Shown one piece after another: positions 1 through 12,389 of a stretch of 64,000 nucleotides of DNA. The stretch comes from Alphaproteobacteria bacterium UBA6376 (lineage in GTDB: Bacteria > Pseudomonadota > Alphaproteobacteria > Rs-D84), in assembly GCA_002437665.1 (NCBI GenBank), contig DJQW01000001.1, forward strand, positions 392,727 to 456,726, in the 5' to 3' direction. The notes under the pieces were generated by a model. The model was not told the origin of the DNA and did no database searches. It worked only from the letters and a program-made list of their open reading frames with translations. A program made the translations under genes and the position numbers. How positions within the stretch are numbered: position 1 is the first letter of the stretch; every line of letters begins with the position of its first letter.

Positions 1-1314
1 CAATACCAGATCTAATTTCAAATGTGCCATGGTATAACTGGACATCATGATTTCAAACCCGTGCATACGTGGCAACAAATCGTTTTCAACGTAATTCGGC
101 CAAATGCCAGCATTATTCTTGAACTTATCATAAATATAGTTCACTGCGGTTGCTAAAAATGTTCCTGTGCCGGTTGCAGGGTCAAGTAATTGAACACGAT
201 GGTACTCTTTGTCTTCTGCTTTTGCGTGTCCTTGTAAATGGACTTTTTTTATGATTTTTGACTTGTCCGCCAATCCATTTGGTAATTCAAAATCCGTTTT
301 CAATATGTCGTCCATCGCACGGACTATGTAATCAACAACCGGTTGTGGGGTATAATAAACACCACGCATTTTACGCAACGTCTTGTCATATTTGCTTAAA
401 AACGTTTCATAGAAATGAACTATAGGATCGGCTGTCTTGGTTTTACGTCCAAAATCTTTCAAAATATCTGCAACATCAGTATAACTAAAAATGCTTGCCA
501 AACTGTCAACAGACCACACAATACGCTCATCAATATCATTTCCAGCAATATAATCAAACATTTTACGCAAAAACGGCACCGTCTTAGGTATCAGGGTGGC
601 GGCTTCCTGGCGGGTGAAATCATGCATAGTTTTGTCGTGCAAACGTGCAACAAACATACCGTACGCAATCGTTTGTGCATAAATGTCTGCAAATTCTTGT
701 TCTGTCATTGTGCGAATAAGAATCTTTCGGAATGATTCCAGCTGTTCATATAATGATTGGTTTTCTGATTGATCCTTTAATGCGCCTTTTATCACGTCTG
801 CAATCAAACGTGCTTTACCGGCCATCAATTCGGCCAATTTCAATGGTGATTTTATAGTTGCGGTTTTGATGACATAAAAATCTTTTATCAAATCAACCAA
901 TGTTTGATACCGTTCTGGTAACGGTGTAATTGTTTTGCCATCAAATTCAGCTATGCGCACTCTGGCGGTTTCTTTGCCTTCTTGATAAAATCTGAATTCC
1001 AAATAATCTGTATATATCAAATTTGGCAATGCATCCAAATAACGACTTTTTTGTTCTATCTCCCTGTCTGACAAATTATCTAACCGATTAATTCCGATAT
1101 CTTTTGCCTCTATAAAACCCAACACCGCATCACTGCGTCGGACCATAAAATCAGGCGCGCCAAACGTTCCACGCGCCGGTTCATTTATTGCGACTATCCC
1201 CGTTTCAATAGATTCAAGCAATCGTTTCAGGGCGGGACGATAAGAATGTTCTTTTGCGACCCCTGTTTTGAATTCTTTATCTATATCAACCAAATATTCA
1301 CAAGCACCATACAT
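1..1314 (-). CDS. Type IIG restriction-modification enzyme, N-terminal part only (PD-(D/E)xK endonuclease + gamma-class N6-adenine methyltransferase); C-terminus lies beyond window start
   Basis: Minus-strand ORF starting at ATG 1312-1314 (AAGGA RBS 8 nt upstream) and running off the window. Translation shows GAPDFMV...GFIEAKD (PD-(D/E)xK nuclease), then YYTPQPVVDYIV and LLDPATGTGTFL (MTase motifs X/I). Not in the ORF track because there is no stop inside the window. Confidence 0.6.
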   Translation of the reverse strand, partial: MYGACEYLVDIDKEFKTGVAKEHSYRPALKRLLESIETGIVAINEPARGTFGAPDFMVRRSDAVLGFIEAKDIGINRLDNLSDREIEQKSRYLDALPNLIYTDYLEFRFYQEGKETARVRIAEFDGKTITPLPERYQTLVDLIKDFYVIKTATIKSPLKLAELMAGKARLIADVIKGALKDQSENQSLYEQLESFRKILIRTMTEQEFADIYAQTIAYGMFVARLHDKTMHDFTRQEAATLIPKTVPFLRKMFDYIAGNDIDERIVWSVDSLASIFSYTDVADILKDFGRKTKTADPIVHFYETFLSKYDKTLRKMRGVYYTPQPVVDYIVRAMDDILKTDFELPNGLADKSKIIKKVHLQGHAKAEDKEYHRVQLLDPATGTGTFLATAVNYIYDKFKNNAGIWPNYVENDLLPRMHGFEIMMSSYTMAHLKLDLVL

Positions 1315-1348
1315 GAGCCAATCCTTGATGGCCCAATCTGTTTTCTTT

Positions 1349-1371
1349 ATACAGGCAATCTAAGGACCATC
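1349..1371. repeat. Left 23-bp inverted repeat (atacaggcaatctaaggaccatc) of putative invertible promoter segment
   Basis: Perfect 23/23 reverse-complement match to 1453-1475; read directly from the sequence. Confidence 0.85.
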
Positions 1372-1400
1372 TTTTTGCCATAACCATCATTTACATGCTG

Positions 1401-1429
1401 ATTCTACCAGATTTTAACCCGTTTTGCAA
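1401..1429 (-). promoter_or_regulatory. Sigma70-like promoter TTGCAA-N17-TAGAAT inside the invertible segment, currently facing the Type IIG gene
   Basis: Minus-strand -35 TTGCAA (1424-1429), 17-nt spacer, -10 TAGAAT (1401-1406). An AAGGA RBS and the ATG of the methyltransferase gene follow about 90 nt downstream. Confidence 0.55.
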
Positions 1430-1452
1430 TAAAGGCATACTCTGGACATTCT

Positions 1453-1475
1453 GATGGTCCTTAGATTGCCTGTAT
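1453..1475. repeat. Right 23-bp inverted repeat; overlaps last 5 codons plus stop of the recombinase gene
   Basis: Reverse complement is identical to 1349-1371. Confidence 0.85.
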
Positions 1476-2054
1476 GTATCGTCCCAATGTTCTCGGACTA
1501 ACATTTAGTGCCATTGCCACGCGTCTTTTTGATATCCCCATTGCCAACATTTGTTTTGCTAATTTACTCTTGCCGTCCATTTTATGATGCTTGTTTTTGC
1601 TTCCCGTCTGTCGTCCAAGTTGCATGCCCGCCAGTTTTCTACGTTGCAATGCTTCTTTGGTCCTTTGCGCAATCATGTCACGTTCTATCTCTGCGGCCAT
1701 ACCGAATGCAAAGGCCAGTACCTTACTTTGAATTGATTCATTCAAGGTATACCCATCCTTTACACTGTAAACCTGCACTCCACGCTTTAATAGAAATTCT
1801 AATATGCGAAACAGCATGAACAGGCGTCGCCCGAAACGTGACAATTCAGAAATGATTACGATGTCCCCAGGGTGGATATTTTGCATCAAAATACCAAGCG
1901 CACGCTTTTCTGGTTCACGCGTGCCGGATATGCCAGAATCTTCTATATATTTATCTATCCGCAACCCAAGCGCCCCCGCCTTGGATTCAATACCCAGTTT
2001 TTGATTCGCACAATCTTGTTTATCCGTTGAAACCCGTATATAGCCATATATCAC
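1461..2054 (-). CDS. Serine recombinase (resolvase/invertase family, Hin/Gin/Tn3-resolvase-like)
   Basis: 197 aa; N-terminal YIRVSTDKQ catalytic-serine motif, resolvase core, C-terminal HTH (ISKRRVAMALNVSPRTLGRYI). Confidence 0.85.
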   Translation of the reverse strand: MIYGYIRVSTDKQDCANQKLGIESKAGALGLRIDKYIEDSGISGTREPEKRALGILMQNIHPGDIVIISELSRFGRRLFMLFRILEFLLKRGVQVYSVKDGYTLNESIQSKVLAFAFGMAAEIERDMIAQRTKEALQRRKLAGMQLGRQTGSKNKHHKMDGKSKLAKQMLAMGISKRRVAMALNVSPRTLGRYIQAI

Positions 2055-2220
2055 AATAAACTCCTTTGGTTCGTTGTTCTATATGTCGTAGATTTCAGTT
2101 TATTCAAGTAAATAAAGATGGTTTAAGAGTGTTCAGTAACAATACTTTTTTTATCCATCGGCACTTGAAAATAGTGGACTTTTTACCTAGTTAATATAAA
2201 ACATACAAGGATTTAGAAAC

Positions 2221-3684
2221 ATGAAAACAGTTTTAGATTTAAATGCAGAAAAGGCAAAAAATTTTTTTCTGGCAGGGGAAAATTATTTTACGGGGGATTT
2301 GCCTCCATATTTTAAGTTTAATGATGTTTTACAAAAGGCAACTGCGATTTTGCAAAACAATGAGTTTAAGCAAATATATCACAGAAAACCCAATGATGTT
2401 CCAGACATCAATTATGATATAATAATCAATAAAAATGGGGAATACGATTGGCGTAAATTGACGATAATAAACCCCATATTGTATGTAAACCTTGTAAATT
2501 GTATATGCAATGCCGATGCATGGGAAAAAATATGTAATAGGTTTAAAGAATTTAGATCAGACAATCGTATTGTGTGTTCAAGTATACCGGTTGTAAAAGG
2601 TATGCGTAGACATCAAAGAGCGCAACAGATTTCAAATTGGTTGACAGAATTTGAACAAGATTCTGTGAAACAATCGTTAATTTTCTCTCATATGGTATGT
2701 ACGGATATAGTAAATTGTTATTCATCTATATATACTCATTCTATAGCTTGGGCGCTACATGGAGAAGACGTAGCAAAAAACAATAAAACAGATATGTCTT
2801 TCTTAGGAAATATTATAGATGTCGGTATAAGAGACCTTTCATATAATCAAACTAATGGGATTCCACAAGGTTCGGTATTGATGGATTTTATTGCAGAAAT
2901 TATATTAGGCTATATAGATACCTTAATAGCAGAAAAATTAAAGCGAGAGAACATAAAAGATTACAAAATATTAAGATATAGAGATGATTATAGAATATTT
3001 ACAAATAATCCAAAAGACAGTGAAATAATATTAAAAACTATAAATGATGTTTGTCAGCATATAGGTCTAAGATTAAACACACAAAAAACATTCGCCACAG
3101 ATAAAGTTATTTCAAAAGCGATAAAAAAAGATCGGTTTGATATACCCATAAGTTTCGTGCAACCAAATTATAAAATATTTTTACAATTGTATAAAATGTC
3201 TGAAGAACAGCAGAATTCAGGAGCATTACAAAGTACGTTATCGGCATTAAATAAAAAAATAAAGATAACAAAAAAAGATAAATCAGAACTATTGATAAGT
3301 ATAATTACAGACATCGCATATAATGTCCCAAAAGTTATACCACAAGCATTTACAACTATTAGCCATATTTTAAGAAAAGAACCCAGAGAAATGCAGTTGG
3401 AATACATTACAAAAATCAAGAACAAGTTCTCTAGAAAAGCCTATACAAGTTTTGTTCATATATGGTTGCAAAGATTGAGTATAAATATTGATTATCAGAT
3501 TGAATACGAACCAGATATTTGCAAGTTTGTTAAAGATAAATCTATCGAATTGTGGAATTTTAGTTGGTTAAAAAAAGAATTTTTAGACCAATTAAAACCA
3601 TATGACATAGTAAATGCATATTTGCTTAGACGTGCAAAATTACCAATTGAAAGCAAAGAAACGAATATTTTTGAATACAATTAG
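2221..3684 (+). CDS. Stand-alone reverse transcriptase of the Abi/UG (defence-associated) class, with a C-terminal alpha-helical extension
   Basis: 487 aa. RT motifs: A (MVCTDIVNCYSSI), B' (NGIPQGSVLMDFIAEIIL), C (ILRYRDDYRIF, YxDD), D (IGLRLNTQKT). No endonuclease, maturase or integrase domain is evident. Confidence 0.7.
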   Translation: MKTVLDLNAEKAKNFFLAGENYFTGDLPPYFKFNDVLQKATAILQNNEFKQIYHRKPNDVPDINYDIIINKNGEYDWRKLTIINPILYVNLVNCICNADAWEKICNRFKEFRSDNRIVCSSIPVVKGMRRHQRAQQISNWLTEFEQDSVKQSLIFSHMVCTDIVNCYSSIYTHSIAWALHGEDVAKNNKTDMSFLGNIIDVGIRDLSYNQTNGIPQGSVLMDFIAEIILGYIDTLIAEKLKRENIKDYKILRYRDDYRIFTNNPKDSEIILKTINDVCQHIGLRLNTQKTFATDKVISKAIKKDRFDIPISFVQPNYKIFLQLYKMSEEQQNSGALQSTLSALNKKIKITKKDKSELLISIITDIAYNVPKVIPQAFTTISHILRKEPREMQLEYITKIKNKFSRKAYTSFVHIWLQRLSINIDYQIEYEPDICKFVKDKSIELWNFSWLKKEFLDQLKPYDIVNAYLLRRAKLPIESKETNIFEYN

Positions 3685-4138
3685 GTTTATTTTTACTCTA
3701 TTTAGGAATATTTTGTTTGGTCGCCCACGAACATTATCCCGAACCATTTGCATAAAAAGGCAAAGCGTGCCTGATATGTTGTTGCGCGAACTTGTTTTGC
3801 TTGTTTCAGCTGATAGACAGCATTTCTTTATAAATTGATTAACGACCGATGAAAATTTGGTAAGCCCAGAATGACTATGTTACTTCAATTAAGTGCTATC
3901 CGCACATCCTTCCATCAGGAACTACCCCTGTCTTAATGCCCTGAAACATTTACAGTTAACAAAAACGTCTAATGCAGAAATTGTCAAATGAGATTTACTC
4001 CCGTCAAAAATGTATCATTTTGTTGTTTCAGATACTCTTTATTAACCTTGTACTGCTCTGGAAATTGCTGAAACTCTCTTTTCATTCGCTCTACCCCTGC
4101 CGAGCAAAGATACGCCGGAGTATTGCGCCCCTTTTTGT

Positions 4139-4692
4139 TCAAAGGTGGAATAGACGGATTAAACAGAGCCTCTTGAACATTAACATTGAACAATTCTTAA
4201 CCACATCATTTGTTAGCTGGATAAAGTAAGGAATACGAACCACTTTGTAGCCAAGCTTCATATATAATTTAGTATTTTTTTCATCCCTTAAAATGATATC
4301 AGGGTTTGTGTAATGGTGTATCCCATCAAACTCAACAATTAACTTTAATGTCTCACTTCGATAATCGGGCCGCTTCATGTATTTGTTTCTGCCTACATTT
4401 CCCAATGATTTATCATGAATCCAATCTTGCACATCAGGAAATATGATAGCCAAATACTCTTCAAACCAGTTCTGTGCAACCCGGTGTCTGCATCAAAACC
4501 CGCAACCTGTTTTTCATTAAGTTTTAGATTAAAAGCATAAGACAAAACGCATTCCCCAATATCGCCAAGCATTCTGCCATCAACAGCAAAAGTTTTATGG
4601 ACTTTTTCATGCATGCCCACTGTAGTGGCATGAAGTTTCAGATACTCTCCTAATATAAAATTGGCTTGCTCTTCTGTTACCGTTAAGCTCAT
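4139..4692 (-). pseudogene. DUF559-type (PD-(D/E)xK-like) endonuclease-domain gene, apparently frameshifted
   Basis: ORF 4139-4453 carries LIVEFDGIHHY...KLGYKVVRIPY (DUF559 signature). Overlapping upstream ORF 4393-4692 is in another frame, with a stop just before the DUF559 frame resumes. A third fragment, 3984-4193, may also belong. Confidence 0.35.
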
Positions 4693-4904
4693 TTTATCAC
4701 ATCTTTTTCAAACTACTGTAACACGCCTCCCAGCATCATACAGAGAAAGAAACACCAGCACAAACAAAAACACCAAATTTGTTAAACACACTTTACAAAA
4801 GTGTTATTTTTGACAATTATGAAAAATAAAATAACATAATGGCCGAATTGACTTTCTACCCCGAAATTGCTACCATTATCCGATGATAATAATGGGGCAA
4901 AAAC

Positions 4905-7391
4905 ATGACGTTTGATAAATTACGTGATGACAACGAGGCATATGCTCGTTTAAAAATAAATCAGAAGTTGATTGACGCGGGCTGGTTTTTAACAGATGCC
5001 CATGAACATAAACGCAATGTGAATGTTGAGCAACGGGTTGATTCTGGCTTTGCTGACTATGAAATGTTAGATTCAAACGGCTTTCCTTTGTGTGTTATTG
5101 AAGCCAAAAAACCATCAATCAACCCATTAAGTGCAAAAGAACAAGCACGCAGATATGCAACAGAACACGGTATTCGCTTTGTTATTTTATCAAACGGTGA
5201 AATTTATTATCTGTGGGACATAAAAACGGGTAATCCACAAATCATAACCCAAATACCAACCCAAGAATCTTTGGAAATGCGCTTTGGTTTTGACCCAAGC
5301 ACCAAAGATATAATGAAAGAAAACATTATTCCGGAATATGTTGCATTACAAAAGAATCCGCGCTTGTTGGATGTGCCTGAATATCAAAACCCAAAGACTC
5401 GTGGCGCTTATTGTTGGAATAATGGTTTACGAATATTGCGTGATTATCAGCTTGGTGCCGTTCATGCAGTGCAGCAAGCTATTGCAGATGGTAAAGATAG
5501 ATTCTTGATTGAAATGGCGACTGGATTGGGCAAAACATTGACGGCTGGTGCAATAATTCAAATGTTATTACGCACCGGACACGCGCATAGGGTTTTATTC
5601 CTTGTTGACCGTATTGAATTGGAACAGCAAGCGTGGAAAAACTTTAATGATTATCTGTGTGATTTTGTAACCGTAATTTATAAAGAAAATACAAAAGATT
5701 GGCATAAAGCGGATATTGTTGTTTCAACCATCCAAACATTGATGGCCAGTGATAAATACAAACATTTTTCACCAACTGATTTTGATTTTATCATATCAGA
5801 CGAAGCGCACCGTTCAATAGGTGGTAACAGCCGCGCAGTATTTGAATATTTTATCGGTTACAAATTGGGATTAACTGCGACACCACGTGATTACATCAAA
5901 AATGTGGATATTGATAAAATCAAGGTTAATGACCCAAAAGCACTTGAACGCAGATTGTTATTGGATACATATAAAACATTTGGTTGTGAAAGCGGTGAAC
6001 CAACATACAAATATACAATGATTGACGGTATTAAAAATGGTTATCTGGTTGCCCCAATGGCTATTGATGCGCGCACAGATATAACCACAGAAATGTTATC
6101 CGAAAAAGGTTATCACGCGATTGGTGTTGACGATAATGGCGAGGATGCAGAAGCCGATGTTGTTGTGAAAGATTTTGAAAAACGCTTTTTCAATGACAAT
6201 ATAAACGCGGTATTTTGCAAAGCGTTCTTGGAAAACGCAGAACGCGACCCAATCAGTGGCGAAATTGGTAAAACATTGGTATTTTGCGTTAGTCAATCAC
6301 ACGCTGCAAAGATTACCCAGATGTTGAATGAATTGGCTATGCAGGCATTCCCAGGCAAATATAATAGTGATTTTGCAGTCCAGGTTACCAGCAATGTTCA
6401 AAATGCACAGCAAATGACAAATCAGTTTATGACGGATAATAATAATCTGGGCGGTAAATCAACATTTTTGGAAGGTTATGATACATCAAAAACGCGTGTA
6501 TGTGTAACCGTTGGAATGATGACGACTGGTTATGATTGCAGCGATTTATTAAACATCGTATTTATGCGTCCGGTATTTTCACCAACTGATTTTGTGCAAA
6601 TGAAGGGGCGCGGAACCCGTAAATATACATTCAAGTATGTTGACGCAGATAAGAATGAAACCAGAAAAGACAAAGAAAGATTCAAGATGTTTGACTTCTT
6701 TGGCAACTGCGAATATTTTGAAGAAAAGTTTGATTACGGTCAGCAATTAAAATTACCTGCATTAACAAAAGGCGCTTTGGCAGGGCCAGGACAACAACGC
6801 ACATTTACAACCTTAACATCCGAAGAGATAACGAAACTGATTCAAATGGAAACGCTTAATATCCCAGACAACGGAATGCGTATAGACCGCGAATTCTGGG
6901 GCAATTTCCAAAAGACAATCAGTGCTGATACAGATATTAAAAATGCGGTTGAAAACAGCGATTGGGATTATGCTGTATCATTGGTTAAAGACAGATACGA
7001 AAATAAACCTGAATTATATCCTAATCTGGAACGGATTAAAAAAGCGACAAAATTGGACCGCCGTTTGTCCTGGCGCGAAATATTGGAACATATATTCGGC
7101 TTGCTGCCCCGATTTAAGACACGCGATGAAATGTTAGAAGATGAATGCGATAAATACATATCTATTGTTAAACCTGACGCTGAAATTGTGCCGTCTGTTA
7201 AAAATTTCATAAAATTGTATGTCACAGACAACACATTTCGTGATATAATAGAAAAGCAGGAGTATCCGCGCCTTAATGCTGAAATTCCTGGCTTTAGTAT
7301 GCAGGATTTGAAAATGATGGGCAAAGACATCCGCGAAAATTTACCTGAATACATCAAAGAAAACATAGTATTGAATAAATATATGGGGTAA
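4905..7391 (+). CDS. hsdR: Type I restriction enzyme R subunit (HsdR)
   Basis: 828 aa. N-terminal nuclease motif (DSGFADY...IEAKKP), SF2 helicase motifs MATGLGKT, DEAH, LTATP, QMKGRGTR. Confidence 0.8.
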   Translation: MTFDKLRDDNEAYARLKINQKLIDAGWFLTDAHEHKRNVNVEQRVDSGFADYEMLDSNGFPLCVIEAKKPSINPLSAKEQARRYATEHGIRFVILSNGEIYYLWDIKTGNPQIITQIPTQESLEMRFGFDPSTKDIMKENIIPEYVALQKNPRLLDVPEYQNPKTRGAYCWNNGLRILRDYQLGAVHAVQQAIADGKDRFLIEMATGLGKTLTAGAIIQMLLRTGHAHRVLFLVDRIELEQQAWKNFNDYLCDFVTVIYKENTKDWHKADIVVSTIQTLMASDKYKHFSPTDFDFIISDEAHRSIGGNSRAVFEYFIGYKLGLTATPRDYIKNVDIDKIKVNDPKALERRLLLDTYKTFGCESGEPTYKYTMIDGIKNGYLVAPMAIDARTDITTEMLSEKGYHAIGVDDNGEDAEADVVVKDFEKRFFNDNINAVFCKAFLENAERDPISGEIGKTLVFCVSQSHAAKITQMLNELAMQAFPGKYNSDFAVQVTSNVQNAQQMTNQFMTDNNNLGGKSTFLEGYDTSKTRVCVTVGMMTTGYDCSDLLNIVFMRPVFSPTDFVQMKGRGTRKYTFKYVDADKNETRKDKERFKMFDFFGNCEYFEEKFDYGQQLKLPALTKGALAGPGQQRTFTTLTSEEITKLIQMETLNIPDNGMRIDREFWGNFQKTISADTDIKNAVENSDWDYAVSLVKDRYENKPELYPNLERIKKATKLDRRLSWREILEHIFGLLPRFKTRDEMLEDECDKYISIVKPDAEIVPSVKNFIKLYVTDNTFRDIIEKQEYPRLNAEIPGFSMQDLKMMGKDIRENLPEYIKENIVLNKYMG

Positions 7392-7395
7392 CGGT

Positions 7396-9288
7396 ATGTT
7401 AGACGCCAGAACAAAACAAACCATTGATAATGCCTGCGATACATTGGTGGGTAAAGTGCCAAGTCCACAGACACAGGTTGATATTATTACAACCGCGCTA
7501 ATTTATAAGTTTATGGACGATATGGATTTGGACGGCCTTGAATTGTCGGGCAAGCGTACATTTTTTGCCGGCGATTTAGAAGCATACGCGTTTTCAACCG
7601 TTGTTAATACCAAGGGTAATCAAGAACGGATGAACCTGTATTTGACAGGGCTTGAAAAGGTGCAGACCGCCAAATCGGTGCCTGAATTATTTCGCCGTAT
7701 TTTCAAAGAAGCACTTATTCCATTTCGCGATCCTACAACATTTGCATTGTTTCTAAAAGAAATCAACGAATTATCATACGATGATTCCGAGACAATAGGT
7801 GATGCTTTTGAATACCTTTTGAATAAAATGGCGACTGCAAAAAATGCGGGGCAGTTCAGAACGCCACGTAATATTATTGATTTCATCGTTGATGTTGTGA
7901 ATCCTACTAAAAATGATACTATTTTAGATCCTGCCTGCGGAACGGCCGGATTCTTGATTTCTGCATACAAGCACATTACACAAAATCGTAAATTGACACC
8001 AGATGAATTAAAACAGATTACGAATAATGTTGTTGGAATGGATATTGATCCAACTATGGTGAAATTAAGTCTGGCCAATCTGTATTTGCATAAATTTGAA
8101 CAACCAAATATTTATGAATATGATACTTTGTCGAATGATACACGTTGGGGTGACCGATATGATGTTATTTTAGCAAACCCACCATTCATGACCCCAAAGG
8201 GCGGAATTACACCGCATAAGCGATTTGCCATAAACGCCAACCGCAGTGAAGTTTTGTTCGTCGATTATTTTATGGAGCATTTGACAATAAACGGGCGTGC
8301 TGGCTTTGTTGTCCCAGAGGGTATTATATTCCAAACCGCAAACGCATATAAAGATTTGCGTAAAATGATGTTGGATGGTTATTTATACGCGGTTGTATCT
8401 TTACCATCTGGCGTATTCAATCCGTATGCTGGGGTAAAAACATCAATACTATTCTTTGACCGCGCGTTTGCAAAACAAAACAACAATATATTATTTGTGC
8501 GTGTTGATAATGACGGCTTTTCTTTGGGCGCACAACGCACACCGATCAAACAGAACGATTTACCAGAAACGTTAAAGATTATCAATGAATACCGCGATGG
8601 TAAAGATGTATCAGGTTATGAACGCGCAATGGTTGTGTCCAAAGAACGCATAGCAGAACAAAATTATGACCTAACCGCTGCAAAGTATGTTGAGAAAGAA
8701 ATTGTTCAATGTAATTATGGAATGGTTAGATTGGGTGATGTTTGTGAATTGTTAAATGGATATGCATTCAAAAGCGAATTGTATACGGATACTGGTATTC
8801 GTGTGATGCGTATAACAAATGTGCAGAAAGGCGAAATTGTTGATGATAACCCAAAATTTTATCCGATAGAAAAACAATCCGAAATACAAAATTACATGTT
8901 ACATGAAAATGACTTGCTTGTATCTTTAACGGGTAATGTTGGGCGTGTTGGTTTGTTGCCAAAGAATTTATTACCTGCAGGATTAAATCAACGGGTTGCA
9001 TGTTTAAGACCGGATACAGATAAAATTTTGAAGGGATATTTGTTTGCTATATTAAATCAGGATAAATTTGAAAAAGATTGTATTGAATCGTCTGGCGGAA
9101 TTGCGCAAAAGAATTTAAGCACAGTATGGTTACAAAATTACACAATCCCACTTCCGTCATTGGATGTGCAACAACAGATTGTGGATGAAATTGAAAATAA
9201 GCAATCAGCAATCAACCACGCACGCAAAATCATTGAAAATCTAGAGAGAGAGAGAGAGAATATTTTGCCTGCCTTCTTGACAGTATAG
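7396..9288 (+). CDS. hsdM: Type I methyltransferase HsdM fused in frame to an HsdS half (target-recognition domain 1 + conserved coiled-coil)
   Basis: 630 aa. N6-MTase motifs (DPACGTAGFL, NPPF). Typical HsdM C-terminus (SKERIAEQNYDLTAAKYV) runs directly into an HsdS-like TRD (VRLGDVCELLNGYAFKS...). Ends just after an (AG)8 tract. Confidence 0.8.
   Translation: MLDARTKQTIDNACDTLVGKVPSPQTQVDIITTALIYKFMDDMDLDGLELSGKRTFFAGDLEAYAFSTVVNTKGNQERMNLYLTGLEKVQTAKSVPELFRRIFKEALIPFRDPTTFALFLKEINELSYDDSETIGDAFEYLLNKMATAKNAGQFRTPRNIIDFIVDVVNPTKNDTILDPACGTAGFLISAYKHITQNRKLTPDELKQITNNVVGMDIDPTMVKLSLANLYLHKFEQPNIYEYDTLSNDTRWGDRYDVILANPPFMTPKGGITPHKRFAINANRSEVLFVDYFMEHLTINGRAGFVVPEGIIFQTANAYKDLRKMMLDGYLYAVVSLPSGVFNPYAGVKTSILFFDRAFAKQNNNILFVRVDNDGFSLGAQRTPIKQNDLPETLKIINEYRDGKDVSGYERAMVVSKERIAEQNYDLTAAKYVEKEIVQCNYGMVRLGDVCELLNGYAFKSELYTDTGIRVMRITNVQKGEIVDDNPKFYPIEKQSEIQNYMLHENDLLVSLTGNVGRVGLLPKNLLPAGLNQRVACLRPDTDKILKGYLFAILNQDKFEKDCIESSGGIAQKNLSTVWLQNYTIPLPSLDVQQQIVDEIENKQSAINHARKIIENLERERENILPAFLTV
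9243..9259. repeat. (AG)8 dinucleotide simple-sequence repeat at the hsdM-S/hsdS' junction
   Basis: agagagagagagagaga read directly. It lies about 30 nt before the stop of the HsdM-S ORF (ends 9288). The downstream half-S frame is open through the tract. Confidence 0.8.
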
Positions 9289-9305
9289 ATTACAACGAAG
9301 TAAAA

Positions 9306-9800
9306 TTGGGCGATGTTGTAAAGGTTGATTGGGGAAATACCAATTTAACAAAAGCCGCATATGAAGAAAATGGCAAATATCTTGGTGTCAGTGCTGCAGG
9401 TTGTGACGGGCGTATGTCAAATTTTGAACACGATGTGGGAGTTAGTGTTTTATCTGCGATAGGTGCAAACTGTGGAAGGGTTTTTTATCCGGATGAAAAA
9501 TTTACGGCGATTAAAAATACTATAACTTTCACACCGAATAGAACAGTTGTTGTGCCAAAATATTTATTTTTTGTTATGCGGAACAATCAATTACCACAGC
9601 GTGGCGGAGCACAACCATTTATGGCGAAAGCGGATGTTGAATCATATATTATACCACTTCCATCCATTGACGACCAGAAGCGTATAGTTGCAAAATTGGA
9701 AGCAGAACAGGAAATCATTGATACAAATAAACGCTTGATTGATTTGATGCAAGAAAAAATCAACCAAGTTATAAAACGTATATATAGGTGCAATATGTAA
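9306..9800 (+). CDS. hsdS: HsdS half-subunit (target-recognition domain 2 + second conserved coiled-coil)
   Basis: 164 aa, TTG start. TRD followed by LPSIDDQKRIVAKLEAEQEIID...; its frame is open upstream through the (AG)8 tract. Confidence 0.65.
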   Translation: MGDVVKVDWGNTNLTKAAYEENGKYLGVSAAGCDGRMSNFEHDVGVSVLSAIGANCGRVFYPDEKFTAIKNTITFTPNRTVVVPKYLFFVMRNNQLPQRGGAQPFMAKADVESYIIPLPSIDDQKRIVAKLEAEQEIIDTNKRLIDLMQEKINQVIKRIYRCNM

Positions 9801-9802
9801 TT

Positions 9803-10492
9803 ATGACTGAATATTCTGATGATAATCCAGTTTATGTATTAGCGGATTTTTTGCCGCCACTTGATGAAACTGTTGCTTATCTATATAAATACAAAGATGA
9901 TTTTGCATATCATTATGAACGAGAATTTTATAATCTTGCGTTATTCTCGTATCACCAATTGTATATGGCAATATTGCATATGTATTTGTTAAAGTTCCAC
10001 AGGATGGATATAAAAATCGCTAGTGCCTGCAGGCAGAATCGTCCAATTATAAGTGTTTTATCTCCTTCTTTTTATTCTGATGTTATGGATGAAAAAGCTC
10101 GCATTGGGTTGTTTGGTCGTAGAATTTCAACCGAAATTAAAAAGAAACATGTAGAATTAGTTCAACAAAGGGATAGAATTGCGCATTTTACTGGGAATGT
10201 GTTAACCAAAGAACAAATTGACGAACATATATCAATATCGGCGGTTGTGTTAAAAGAAATTCAATCTGTTGCTTTTTATGAATTACTTTTGCATCCAACA
10301 GACCGTTTCGGGGTTCAAGTAAACGATATAGTGACAGAAATAGACAAGTCGGAAAGGTTTTCAAAAATTTCATATCTGATTCAGGACTTCTATTTATCTA
10401 AAAATGATATAGATTTTTTACAGAGATATCCTGATTTTTGTTTTTGGAATGAATATATACAGGAAAATGGTTATGAGCCAATTGAAAATTAA
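9803..10492 (+). CDS. Hypothetical protein with HEPN-like Rx4H motif (Abi-like candidate)
   Basis: About 229 aa, directly after hsdS'; RDRIAHF motif; no other recognisable domain. Confidence 0.35.
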   Translation: MTEYSDDNPVYVLADFLPPLDETVAYLYKYKDDFAYHYEREFYNLALFSYHQLYMAILHMYLLKFHRMDIKIASACRQNRPIISVLSPSFYSDVMDEKARIGLFGRRISTEIKKKHVELVQQRDRIAHFTGNVLTKEQIDEHISISAVVLKEIQSVAFYELLLHPTDRFGVQVNDIVTEIDKSERFSKISYLIQDFYLSKNDIDFLQRYPDFCFWNEYIQENGYEPIEN

Positions 10493-10613
10493 TGCCTGTA
10501 TTTATATTAAGGAACACAAGATTTAAATTTTTCTATCAAAATTTAGGAATAAAATACAAGATAATACCACATATTTCAACCACGGGTTGAAACAAGCGGC
10601 GAATTTCCGATAT

Positions 10614-11402
10614 CTACGCAACCGCATTCTCAAATCGGTCTACGATTTCAAGTAATGTGTCTGGTACATATTTTCGGGCGGTCGCCTGTATGTCGGCTGG
10701 CACGCCATAGTACGCACCGGCAACTGCGCCCGTAATGGCGGCAATCGTGTCACTGTCGCCACCGATTGAAATTGCATTGCGTATTGCGTCTTCAAAATCG
10801 GTGGATTCTATAAAGCACTGCAACGCCTGCGGGACTGTGCCTTGGCACGAGGCATCCCAACGATAACTTTTTTGCAATTCAGAAACCGGTAAGCACGCCC
10901 CATAGTAGTTTTTGATTATGTGCCGACCTATCTCGGCTTTGTCACGGCCGGTGCGTGCCAGAAATACGGCAACGGCGGTTGCCTCGGCCCCTTTGATGGC
11001 CTCGATGTGGTCATGACTGACCGATGTTACCATGTACGACAGGCGTTTAACCTCTGATAAACTGCGGCCAACCCAGCCAGCCGCCGACACGCGCATTGCG
11101 GCACCGTTGCCCCAACTGTCGTACGGTTCGCTGTCATAGCTATCCAGCCAACGTGCAAATCTGAATCCATAGCTCTTGTCCGGGAACTGTCGGCCAATCG
11201 TGCGCATAGACCGGCGCGCCAAATCCGACAGATCGCCACCATCACGCCGCCATTTCAACAGCGCATCCGCCACCGCGATGGTCATACAAGTGTCATCTGT
11301 GATAAATCCACACGGTGAAAATAATGGAAAATCCTTGGTTCTGATATTATCAAATTCATAAATAGATCCGACAATATCACCAACTATCGCACCCCACAGC
11401 AT
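10614..11402 (-). CDS. ADP-ribosylglycohydrolase family protein (DraG/ARH-like)
   Basis: 262 aa; GAIVGDIVGS, GNGAAMRVSAAG, GGDSDTIAAITGAVAGAYYG motifs. Confidence 0.8.
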   Translation of the reverse strand: MLWGAIVGDIVGSIYEFDNIRTKDFPLFSPCGFITDDTCMTIAVADALLKWRRDGGDLSDLARRSMRTIGRQFPDKSYGFRFARWLDSYDSEPYDSWGNGAAMRVSAAGWVGRSLSEVKRLSYMVTSVSHDHIEAIKGAEATAVAVFLARTGRDKAEIGRHIIKNYYGACLPVSELQKSYRWDASCQGTVPQALQCFIESTDFEDAIRNAISIGGDSDTIAAITGAVAGAYYGVPADIQATARKYVPDTLLEIVDRFENAVA

Positions 11403-11414
11403 ATTGCGCCCCCT

Positions 11415-11936
11415 TTATAACGTGCTTAAAAAATTCTCTAACTCTTTAATCTTTTGTTTTTTCCAACCGCGATTGCTTTTTTGAAACTGGGTGTAAGTGC
11501 GCAACTCTGTGACCTTGCGCAACCATGGGGCGGGGTAATAGCCGAACACCGGTACATTTCGCGCCATGCATTGACGCAATATGGCGATGTTTTCATCACG
11601 TGCGTCACGCGCGCCCTTGGGCCACGTCGCCTCTGGCGGAATACCGCGCGATGATGCCGTGTGATACGGATAGTATTCCAGAAACAGAACCTCTGAATTT
11701 TTTACACCATGTTCACGGAACGCAGCGCAAAAATCGTCCCACCAATCGTTGTATTCCTGCAAACTGTCCAAAGGCATACCGGTTGGGGCATAGCAGCCGT
11801 CTGAGCGCATTGCGTACTCTGGCAATCGTTTTGGCCACTGCGGATTGCCACCCGGATTCCATAACAATATGACAAGACGTGGATTTCTGTCGTTACCCAA
11901 ACGCACCACCGGCAAATCGTATAAATCTCTACTCAT
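11415..11936 (-). CDS. Hypothetical protein, co-oriented 12 bp upstream partner of the ADP-ribosylglycohydrolase
   Basis: 173 aa ORF (W/Y/P-rich, YYPYHTASSRG); no domain recognised. Confidence 0.4.
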   Translation of the reverse strand: MSRDLYDLPVVRLGNDRNPRLVILLWNPGGNPQWPKRLPEYAMRSDGCYAPTGMPLDSLQEYNDWWDDFCAAFREHGVKNSEVLFLEYYPYHTASSRGIPPEATWPKGARDARDENIAILRQCMARNVPVFGYYPAPWLRKVTELRTYTQFQKSNRGWKKQKIKELENFLSTL

Positions 11937-12054
11937 ATTGTATTCCCTCCACAGTCAGACCCAAAAAAATGATGTGAAATATTTATATAAAAATTCTGCA
12001 AGAACCAGACGACAAAATCAATAAAAAACACCCCGCACGGGGTATTTTTATTAC

Positions 12055-12144
12055 TGGCGGATGGGGAGGGATTCGAACCCCCGGAAGAGTTGCCCCTTCA
12101 GCGGTTTTCAAGACCGTCGCATTCGACCGCTCTGCCACCCATCC
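12055..12144 (-). tRNA. tRNA-Ser (anticodon UGA), long variable arm
   Basis: Reverse complement GGATGGGTGGCAGAGCGG...CUUGAAAACCG...GGTTCGAATCCCTCCCCATCCGCCA folds as a class II tRNA. A terminator hairpin (12029-12050) follows the 3' end. Confidence 0.85.
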
Positions 12145-12264
12145 GAAACTGTTTCATTTTATCCGCCGGTCTTTCAAACCTGCGGTTTTGTTCGCACCGC
12201 GTTGCGGGCTCACCATTCGTTCGCGCGCGGCGGCGTTCCACTTGCCTTGCTGACTCATAAGCAA

Positions 12265-12303
12265 GACCGTCGCTATTGTCCCGCTCTGCCACCCATCCGA
12301 AAC
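12265..12303 (-). repeat. Partial duplicate (about 88 percent identity) of the 5' half of tRNA-Ser
   Basis: gaccgtcgcTATTGTCCcgctctgccacccatccgaaac versus the tRNA at 12112-12148. Confidence 0.6.
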
Positions 12304-12389
12304 GGTTTCTGGTGTTTGCCGGCACTTTTGTTCAGTGCGGTCGCATTGTATATATTTTTTTTATACTTTGCAACCGTAAAATCTGAATC

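Follow-up and report, generated by a model that had tools for sequence, protein, structure and literature searches.

A divergent reverse transcriptase of the Abi-P2 family carried as a self-contained cassette in an alphaproteobacterial genome

We analyzed a DNA stretch of 64,000 nucleotides from Alphaproteobacteria bacterium UBA6376 (contig DJQW01000001.1, positions 392,727 to 456,726; hereafter the window) and focused on the gene at 2221-3684, which encodes a reverse transcriptase (RT). The protein is a divergent member of the large and well-described Abi-P2 family, with approximately 32% identity to the type protein. Our main conclusion, to which we assign a probability of about 0.85, is that the RT belongs to this family, within class 1 of the UG/Abi enzymes, and acts as a stand-alone, single-protein abortive-infection defence. 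Family membership and polymerase chemistry share that figure, whereas the step in which a phage triggers the system is rated much lower. We infer the antiphage role and the biochemistry of this RT by homology only.

Family placement of the protein

The gene was recovered intact from the list of open reading frames (ORFs) as follows.

2221-3684, plus strand: Abi-P2 family RT-like DNA polymerase gene, ATG start, 487 amino acids (ORF list, PADLOC AbiP2 profile, structure 7r08, AF2 model)

For the placement, we compared the protein with profile hidden Markov models, known structures, and phage sequences. The PADLOC AbiP2 profile matched with an E-value of 2.1e-169 and 562 bits, and the alignment joined residues 1-486 of the protein to positions 4-485 of the 489 in the profile. 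In a phmmer search against the PDB, the best match was 7r08, the Abi-P2 crystal structure (E 3.5e-70, query residues 1-454). The AlphaFold2 (AF2) model of the RT had a mean predicted local distance difference test (pLDDT) score of 93.8 and a predicted template modelling score (pTM) of 0.93, and Foldseek aligned it to the whole chain of 7r08 with a template modelling (TM) score of 0.87. In a tblastn search against phage records, the founding RTs of P2-EC30 and P2-EC58 aligned over 99-100% of the length with 31-32% identity (P2-EC30: 32% over 99%). The family is large; 6472 homologues were found at E<=1e-10 among the 8000 candidates scored, with only five clusters above 60% identity.

The first-pass annotation of this DNA had proposed a stand-alone Abi/UG-class RT of the AbiK/Abi-P2/DRT kind. 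The profile comparison placed the protein within the Abi/UG clade, and the PADLOC profile, 7r08, and the fold narrowed the proposal to Abi-P2. The details of that proposal also held. It had described a 487-residue ORF with RT motifs and a helical C-terminal extension of about 190 residues; the motifs are all present (see below), and in the AF2 model the fingers and palm occupy residues ~1-295, whereas residues ~296-470 form an almost wholly helical, alpha-repeat domain. It had reported no nuclease, maturase, or integrase domain; the sole Pfam domain in the protein is RVT_1 (residues 147-293), and the Pfam search found no nuclease, maturase (X), integrase, endonuclease, or DNA-binding domain. 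Standard defence-finder profiles would name this gene automatically, and the gain for RT biology is little.

Abi-P2 was discovered in P2 prophages, within an AT-rich region of high variability; the P2-EC30 RT excludes phage T5 in a manner dependent on its YRDD motif (PMC8632793). No P2 genes flank the RT in the window. This does not exclude membership, because the family has been reported in many phyla (PMC8632793); the prophage location is a historical context, not a defining trait.

Catalytic and priming residues, and selection on the gene

We aligned the RT with 118 full-length homologues (119 sequences in total). Positions conserved in at least 95% of the sequences were Y30, D162 of motif A, Q210-T-N-G-I-P-Q-G-S218 and L220-M-D222 of motif B' (QTNGIPQGSxLMD, 210-222), R252-Y-R-D-D-Y-R258 of motif C (RYRDDYR, 252-258), and K289/T290. 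In an independent alignment of 56 sequences, Y30, D162, R252-Y-R-D-D256, and the QTNGIPQG motif were invariant. The catalytic residues D162, D255, and D256 are thus kept, the latter two within Y253-R-D255-D256 of motif C.

The priming tyrosine of Abi-P2 is Tyr61, located in the loop between fingers helices alpha2 and alpha3; Y61F abolishes synthesis, whereas Y46F does not, in the numbering of a 541-residue construct (Figiel et al., PMC9508834). Counting along the 7r08 chain, we found tyrosines at 46 and 61, and the residue numbering is confirmed because they fall at both positions. A gap-free alignment set 7r08 chain residues 32-133 on query residues 1-102, with Tyr61 (ELPAY) on query Tyr30 (DLPPY) and Tyr46 on query Phe15. 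Tyr30 is therefore the predicted priming residue, a role carried over from PMC9508834.

For the selection analysis and the following sections, we used related loci from other contigs, which carry RTs with 99% (L005/L006), 81% (L001), 68% (L004/L011), 51% (L007-L009), and 44% (L010) identity to the RT of the window. Relative to the L005 copy, the gene has 21 synonymous and five non-synonymous differences, and the ratio of non-synonymous to synonymous substitution rates (dN/dS) is 0.054; relative to the L001 copy, it is 0.086. From these low ratios, the gene is intact and under purifying selection.

Cassette, cargo slot, and downstream DNA

The RT gene lies in a slot whose borders, at 2118/2119 and 3716/3717, were defined by alignments with L005 and with two loci that carry other cargo, L016 and L013. 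The features of the slot and of the DNA on both sides are the following.

1461-2054, minus strand: serine DNA invertase/resolvase gene (Pfam Resolvase, E 3e-32), divergent neighbour of the RT gene
2058-2118, no strand assigned: conserved left flank of the cargo slot, 5' untranslated region of the divergent invertase gene
2119-2220, plus strand: RT cassette leader, 102 bp, promoter region and AAGGA ribosome-binding site
3685-3716, no strand assigned: RT cassette 3' tail, 32 bp, common to L005 only (L016 and L013 align from 3717 onwards)
3717-3872, minus strand: p148 relic, C-terminal ~51 codons (tblastn of the L005 p148 protein, DNA alignment)
3873-3983: 111 bp matching nothing tested, from the p148 relic to the DUF559 stop codon
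3984-4462, minus strand: DUF559 (Vsr-like endonuclease family) pseudogene (Pfam DUF559), with its C-terminal half reaching into 3984-4138
4393-4692, minus strand: DUF6998 N-terminal fragment (Pfam E 5.9e-10, profile positions 3-54 of 136 only)

The left flank, a 60-bp sequence running AAACTCCTTTGGTTCGTTGTTCTATATG...AAGTAAATAA, is conserved in the window, L005, L016, and L013 through ...AAGTAAATAA (2118), past which the sequences diverge. No further copies of it occur in the window. The cargo at 2119-3716 comprises the 102-bp leader, the ORF, and 32 bp, which together make a 1.6-kb cassette. The leader is 97-98% identical to that of L005, whereas L016 and L013 have unrelated sequence in its place.

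The region ~2000-3700 is 98-99% identical to L005 5781-7480 on otherwise different contigs. The flanks are far more diverged; identity is 55-72% over the invertase gene at the left and 66-77% at the right, where homology ends at 3796. A near-identical 1.7-kb block within diverged homologous flanks points to a recent transfer of the cassette by recombination through those flanks. Conversely, L005 and L016 have both flanks in common (92% and 81%), whereas their cargo is unrelated. In the window, L005, and L006, the slot holds the Abi-P2 RT gene, convergent with p148; in L016-L018, it holds a gene for a 342-residue DUF4238 protein, followed by resolvase and type IIG methyltransferase genes; in L013-L015, it holds a gene for an 887-residue AAA_21 ATPase that weakly matches the defence ATPases Ppl, GajA, PtuA, and AriA. 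The resolvase-to-type IIG order of L016-L018 parallels the order of the invertase and the type IIG enzyme in the window. The invertase of the window is also syntenic with those of L005 (64% identity) and L016 (~62%), and it scored 231.8 bits against the NCBIfam Mpi-family model, under the cutoff of 272.

The gene that closes the slot in the related loci encodes a 148-residue protein (p148). In L005 and L006, it is intact, convergent, and 34 bp past the RT gene. It is the last backbone gene of a mobile element, after a tyrosine integrase gene, an HTH_17 gene, a gene for a 159-residue protein, and, in some copies, a Bro-N gene. The protein has neither a Pfam nor a PADLOC match. Its family is well conserved and comprises 253 clusters, most of the 120 listed being ~80-94% identical to the query, and the label of one member gives an Alphaproteobacteria metagenome-assembled genome as its origin. 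This type of carrier element was found in gut and rumen metagenomes, with some contigs labelled Alphaproteobacteria.

In the window, p148 survives as a relic. The L005 protein matched 3872-3720 on the minus strand by tblastn, with 41% identity over its last 51 residues (E 7e-7), and the DNA alignment with the three intact copies of L005, L016, and L013 gave homology from 3717 that fades after ~3872. The relic is interrupted by an in-frame stop, has a 14-bp deletion, and lacks the N-terminal two thirds; the C-terminal motif ...KWFGI(V/M)FVGD-stop is retained. As for a terminator of the RT gene, only a weak 5-bp stem at 3758-3772 turned up, within this relic. In L001, p148 is split. The N-terminal 67 codons stand directly after the RT gene (L001 7487-7687, minus strand, 72% identity), and a homologue of the C-terminal module forms a separate 93-residue ORF 4.4 kb off (12056-12337, plus strand, 58% identity). 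From this split, p148 appears to consist of two modules.

Beyond the p148 relic, a single DUF559 gene is split into the two ORFs at 4139-4453 and 3984-4193. The joined reading aligns over residues 1-160 with a Segatella hominis DUF559 protein (46% identity, E 3e-44). Residues 37-124 of the latter map to 4462-4196 and residues 125-194 to 4196-3987 in a different frame, which locates a frameshift at ~4196 and leaves the first ~36 codons missing. The DUF6998 gene is truncated at the point where the DUF559 relic starts. The 111 bp at 3873-3983 may be more decayed p148 sequence or a deletion junction. Read in this way, the 0.45 kb after the RT gene is evidently the debris of two minus-strand genes, p148 and DUF559, outside the RT system. 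The first-pass annotation had described 3685-4138 as an unexplained stretch without a convincing ORF. No intact ORF was found there in the ORF list or the frame translations, and the stretch is now explained by gene relics. Of its two guesses for this DNA, DUF559 remnants were recovered at 3984-4138, and an associated non-coding RNA was not; it had overlooked the p148 relic and the position of the RT gene as a cassette in a cargo slot.

Weight against an active defence

Several points weigh against our conclusion. Identity to the characterized Abi-P2 proteins is just ~31-32%, and polymerase activity, oligomeric state, priming, and phage exclusion would all have to carry over to this RT from homologues. 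Phage sensing and cell killing are not established even for the type Abi-P2, and a 2021 review described the need for other P2-locus elements in Abi-P2 defence as then unclear (PMC8632793). The promoter scan flagged no consensus sigma-70 promoter upstream of the RT gene; by eye, the leader contains a weak TTGAAA (2165-2170), a 17-nt spacer, and TAGTTA (2188-2193), which the scan left unflagged. No backbone remnants or integrase were found elsewhere in the window, and p148 is decayed, so the RT could be the stranded cargo of an element that lost its backbone.

Among the rival explanations, only this last one, in which the RT is stranded, silent, or useless cargo with no role in its present host, keeps appreciable weight, and that weight is small. 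We retain it because no consensus promoter was flagged and the carrier element is decayed; the p148 relic and the DUF559 and DUF6998 pseudogenes also fit it. However, the ORF is intact with all catalytic residues, only five amino-acid changes against 21 synonymous ones separate it from L005, and the leader is conserved as well.

A further reading concerns the slot. The RT cassette could occupy a previously undescribed defence-cargo slot of the integrase/Bro-N/p148 element, bounded by the 60-bp conserved sequence and the p148 stop codon, with the serine recombinase next to that sequence flipping a promoter for the type IIG enzyme and also taking a share in exchanging the cargo in an integron-like or shufflon-like manner. 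As a whole, we consider this decidedly unlikely. Its parts differ. The existence of a true hotspot whose cargo can be swapped has fairly good support, whereas cargo exchange driven by the serine recombinase is purely speculative. The two slot borders showed no repeated core site, and homologous recombination through the flanks accounts for the data. The 60-bp leader was kept even in L013 (7269-7338) and L015, without an invertase gene after it, and could represent a relic or a hotspot of recombination.

The Abi-P2 gene behaves as an independent unit of 1.6 kb that brings its own leader, and it appears to have been passed recently from one diverged version of the locus to another. Because they frame the slot, p148 and the 60-bp leader could be used as bait for unknown single-gene defences in gut metagenomes.

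Search for a partner RNA or protein

In the class 1 UG/Abi enzymes (AbiA, AbiK, Abi-P2, DRT4, and DRT6), no template RNA is needed (PMC12783706). A partner RNA is nevertheless the basis of one rival reading, in which the RT works with a non-coding RNA from 3685-4138 or 2055-2220 that is copied to cDNA, as in DRT2, DRT9, DRT10, or retrons. It draws on the ~300-450 bp without an intact ORF after the RT gene and on the downstream gaps of 180-560 bp in several relatives, of which that of L010 shows somewhat stronger folding than its mononucleotide shuffles (z -2.2).

We compared 650 bp downstream and 350 bp upstream of the RT gene in eight loci by all-against-all blastn. Shared flanking sequence was limited to pairs of close relatives, and the neighbours of the RT gene change by lineage, including type I restriction-modification genes, a NUDIX gene, integrases, HipA, prophage lysis genes, and an ion exchanger. 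A scan of a genome collection for further relatives gave three loci only, two of them distant Limosilactobacillus fragments. Rfam found no RNA family beside the RT gene, either at the gathering threshold on the whole window or at E<=1 on 1900-5000; the scans of the window returned tRNAs and one spurious IS009 match (23 bits against a gathering score of 117). On seven related loci, Rfam gave nothing relevant. Folding of 3685-3983 (z -0.35) and of 2055-2220 (z -0.91) did not exceed that of shuffles, and the downstream gaps of the relatives, with z between -0.4 and -2.2, have no common sequence.

We give the partner RNA very little credence. Most of the gap in the window consists of two minus-strand gene relics. 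In the closest relative, whose RT is 99% identical, an intact protein gene occupies this position; homology to that relative stops at 3796, and the other relatives have nothing in common with the window here. Additionally, Abi-P2, AbiK, DRT4, and DRT6 synthesize DNA template-free (PMC9508834, PMC12783706). With the downstream non-coding DNA settled as gene debris, a search for a template RNA there is needless.

p148 was tried as a protein partner and rejected; it matches no Pfam or PADLOC entry, and its context puts it in the element backbone. The corresponding rival, a two-gene system of the RT and a convergent p148 acting as regulator or antitoxin, with a broken copy in the window, is hardly probable. 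Pieces of p148 do lie directly 3' of the RT gene in all three closest-clade loci (window, L005/L006, and L001). However, p148 homologues far outnumber close RT relatives, elsewhere p148 adjoins the DUF4238 gene or the ATPase gene and not an RT gene, and RT relatives at <=68% identity are without it. p148 is decayed in the window and split in L001, yet the RT is under purifying selection. Across the eight loci, the RT is without a conserved protein or RNA partner.

Other classes of reverse transcriptase

Membership in another class 1 UG/Abi family (DRT6, UG14, DRT4, or DRT3b) is similarly improbable. Significant PADLOC matches were obtained for Drt6 (179 bits), RT_UG14 (170), Drt4 (164), and AbiK (99, residues 147-427 only), and NCBIfam returned partial Drt4 and Drt3b matches. 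The AbiP2 profile, however, matched end to end with a far higher score, and the NCBIfam equivalog scores lay far under their cutoffs (Drt4 117 against 450, Drt3b 112 against 350, Drt5 43 against 550). The Foldseek TM scores to DRT6 (0.67), DRT4 (0.63), AbiK (0.58), and AbiA (~0.5) were below that to Abi-P2, and the predicted priming tyrosine belongs to the fingers loop, its position in Abi-P2, whereas that of DRT4 is a palm residue.

A retron, group II intron, or diversity-generating retroelement (DGR) RT can be dismissed as the least probable reading; RVT_1 is common to all three and group_II_RT_mat of NCBIfam matched weakly (46.9 bits), yet its cutoff is 300 bits, the protein has no X, endonuclease, or DNA-binding domain, and TM scores were <=0.38 to group II intron, retron (~0.33), DGR (0.34-0.35), DRT2, and DRT9 RTs. 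Neither group II intron RNA domains, retron msr/msd, nor DGR repeats, the features that the first-pass annotation had named as contradicting it, were found. Specifically, there was no other Rfam match, no suitable retron-type inverted repeat next to the RT gene, and no direct repeat longer than 34 nt that could serve as a DGR template/variable repeat pair within 12.5 kb; the longest in that range (34 nt, 71% identity) has no relation to the RT.

Restriction-modification surroundings

The GC content is layered, with values of 29% for the RT gene, 38% for the island (bases 1-12000), and 47% for the remaining window. The first-pass annotation had set the RT among restriction-modification genes, and the annotation below agrees, with a type IIG gene at the left and type I-like genes at the right.

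Start at 1314, running off the window, minus strand: type IIG restriction-methyltransferase (PADLOC, E 2e-132), left of the RT gene
4905-7391: type I-like R subunit, right of the RT gene
7396-9288: M-S fusion (methyltransferase and half specificity domain) of the type I-like system
9306-9800: half-S gene of the type I-like system
9788-10492: 234-residue ORF without annotation, after the half-S gene
10614-11402, minus strand: ADP-ribosylglycohydrolase gene, between the restriction-modification genes and the tRNA
11415-11936, minus strand: 173-residue ORF without annotation, between the restriction-modification genes and the tRNA
12055-12144, minus strand: tRNA-Ser(TGA), right end of the low-GC, defence-rich segment

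PADLOC gave no match for the genes at 10614-11402 and 11415-11936. Past the tRNA-Ser gene, housekeeping genes follow, for example lgt, a class II aminoacyl-tRNA synthetase gene, and nrdD. A 29-nt direct repeat (12127-12155/12281-12309, 97%) is a copy of the 5' part of tRNA-Ser. Near the half-S gene, two imperfect inverted repeats were observed (9054-9078/10413-10437, 80%; 9883-9907/10483-10507, 76%), and with the type I-like genes the region 7396-10507 could be a specificity shufflon.

On the other side of the invertase gene, a perfect 23-nt inverted repeat was found at 1349-1371/1453-1475. It has two copies only and no extra ones in the window, and none is expected by chance. The right arm overlaps the stop codon of the invertase gene (1461-2054), and the 81 nt between the arms contain a promoter-like TTGCAA-17-(TG)TAGAAT on the minus strand (1429..1401), directed towards the type IIG gene, which starts at 1314. 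This arrangement suggests that 1349-1475 is a candidate invertible promoter and that expression of the type IIG enzyme may be phase-variable. In L005, a perfect 20-nt inverted repeat of other sequence lies at the 3' end of the 64%-identical invertase gene (5087-5106/5213-5232) and encloses TTGTAA-17-(TG)TAGAAT (5177..5149, minus strand), directed towards a different downstream gene. Flipping of the RT gene or its promoter by the invertase was considered and rejected; the only repeat pairs found were AT-rich, imperfect, and inside coding sequence (2137-2157/3565-3585, 86%; 2963-2983/3696-3716, 81%). The invertase probably serves the switch on its other side, not the RT. The cargo slot and the candidate invertible-promoter switch both follow known patterns tidily.

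Proposed mechanism

From work on homologues (PMC9508834), we propose that the enzyme would assemble into trimers or hexamers and use the hydroxyl of Tyr30 as primer, with the first nucleotide attached there. Abi-P2 makes DNA without a template in a protein-primed reaction (Figiel et al., PMC9508834); by analogy, the RT of the window would polymerize single-stranded DNA (ssDNA) of random sequence that stays covalently bound to the protein, and the C-terminal helical domain would cradle the growing strand at the site that a template normally occupies.

For DRT4 and DRT6, the reported trigger is a phage protein that binds the ssDNA 3' end and blocks host exonucleases, upon which toxic DNA builds up and the infected cell dies (PMC12783706). 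A trigger of this type is possible in Abi-P2. On infection, a phage ssDNA-binding protein might thus shield the product from host exonucleases, and the accumulating product would kill or arrest the cell before phage release.

Comparison with known systems

The closest system is Abi-P2 itself (P2-EC30, P2-EC58, and 7r08). The RT of the window has the same length class and two-lobe layout, aligns with it end to end by profile, sequence, and predicted fold, and has in common the YRDD active site, the priming tyrosine in the same fingers loop, and the single-gene organization. Both are AT-richer than their surroundings and are carried by a mobile element, at a locus whose cargo varies (PMC8632793). 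The differences are the ~31-32% identity, a host that is not an enterobacterium, and a carrier that is a decayed integrase/Bro-N/p148 element instead of a P2-like phage.

DRT6 and DRT4 (UG15) are the next best by profile and fold. They are single-gene systems with an RT and an alpha-repeat domain, and they combine template-independent, protein-primed ssDNA synthesis with abortive infection (PMC12783706). Their scores are lower (179/164 bits against 562; TM 0.67/0.63 against 0.87), and DRT4 primes from a palm tyrosine (PMC12783706), whereas the RT described here is predicted to prime from Tyr30 in the fingers loop. AbiK of Lactococcus lactis belongs to the same mechanism class, protein-primed and template-independent, with a helical domain in the place of the template (PMC9508834). 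That domain is without sequence homology to the one of Abi-P2 (PMC9508834), and AbiK reached 99 bits and a TM score of 0.58.

The slot resembles the P2/P4 hotspots, in which, as PMC9122126 describes, a fixed slot between conserved flanking genes holds unrelated defence genes that are swapped. Three cargo types were sampled here, with a defence role supported by homology for the RT and weakly suggested for the ATPase. The present slot differs from those hotspots in its element, in its flanks (p148 and the 60-bp invertase leader), and in its host lineage, and it repeats the P2/P4 hotspot logic in this other setting.

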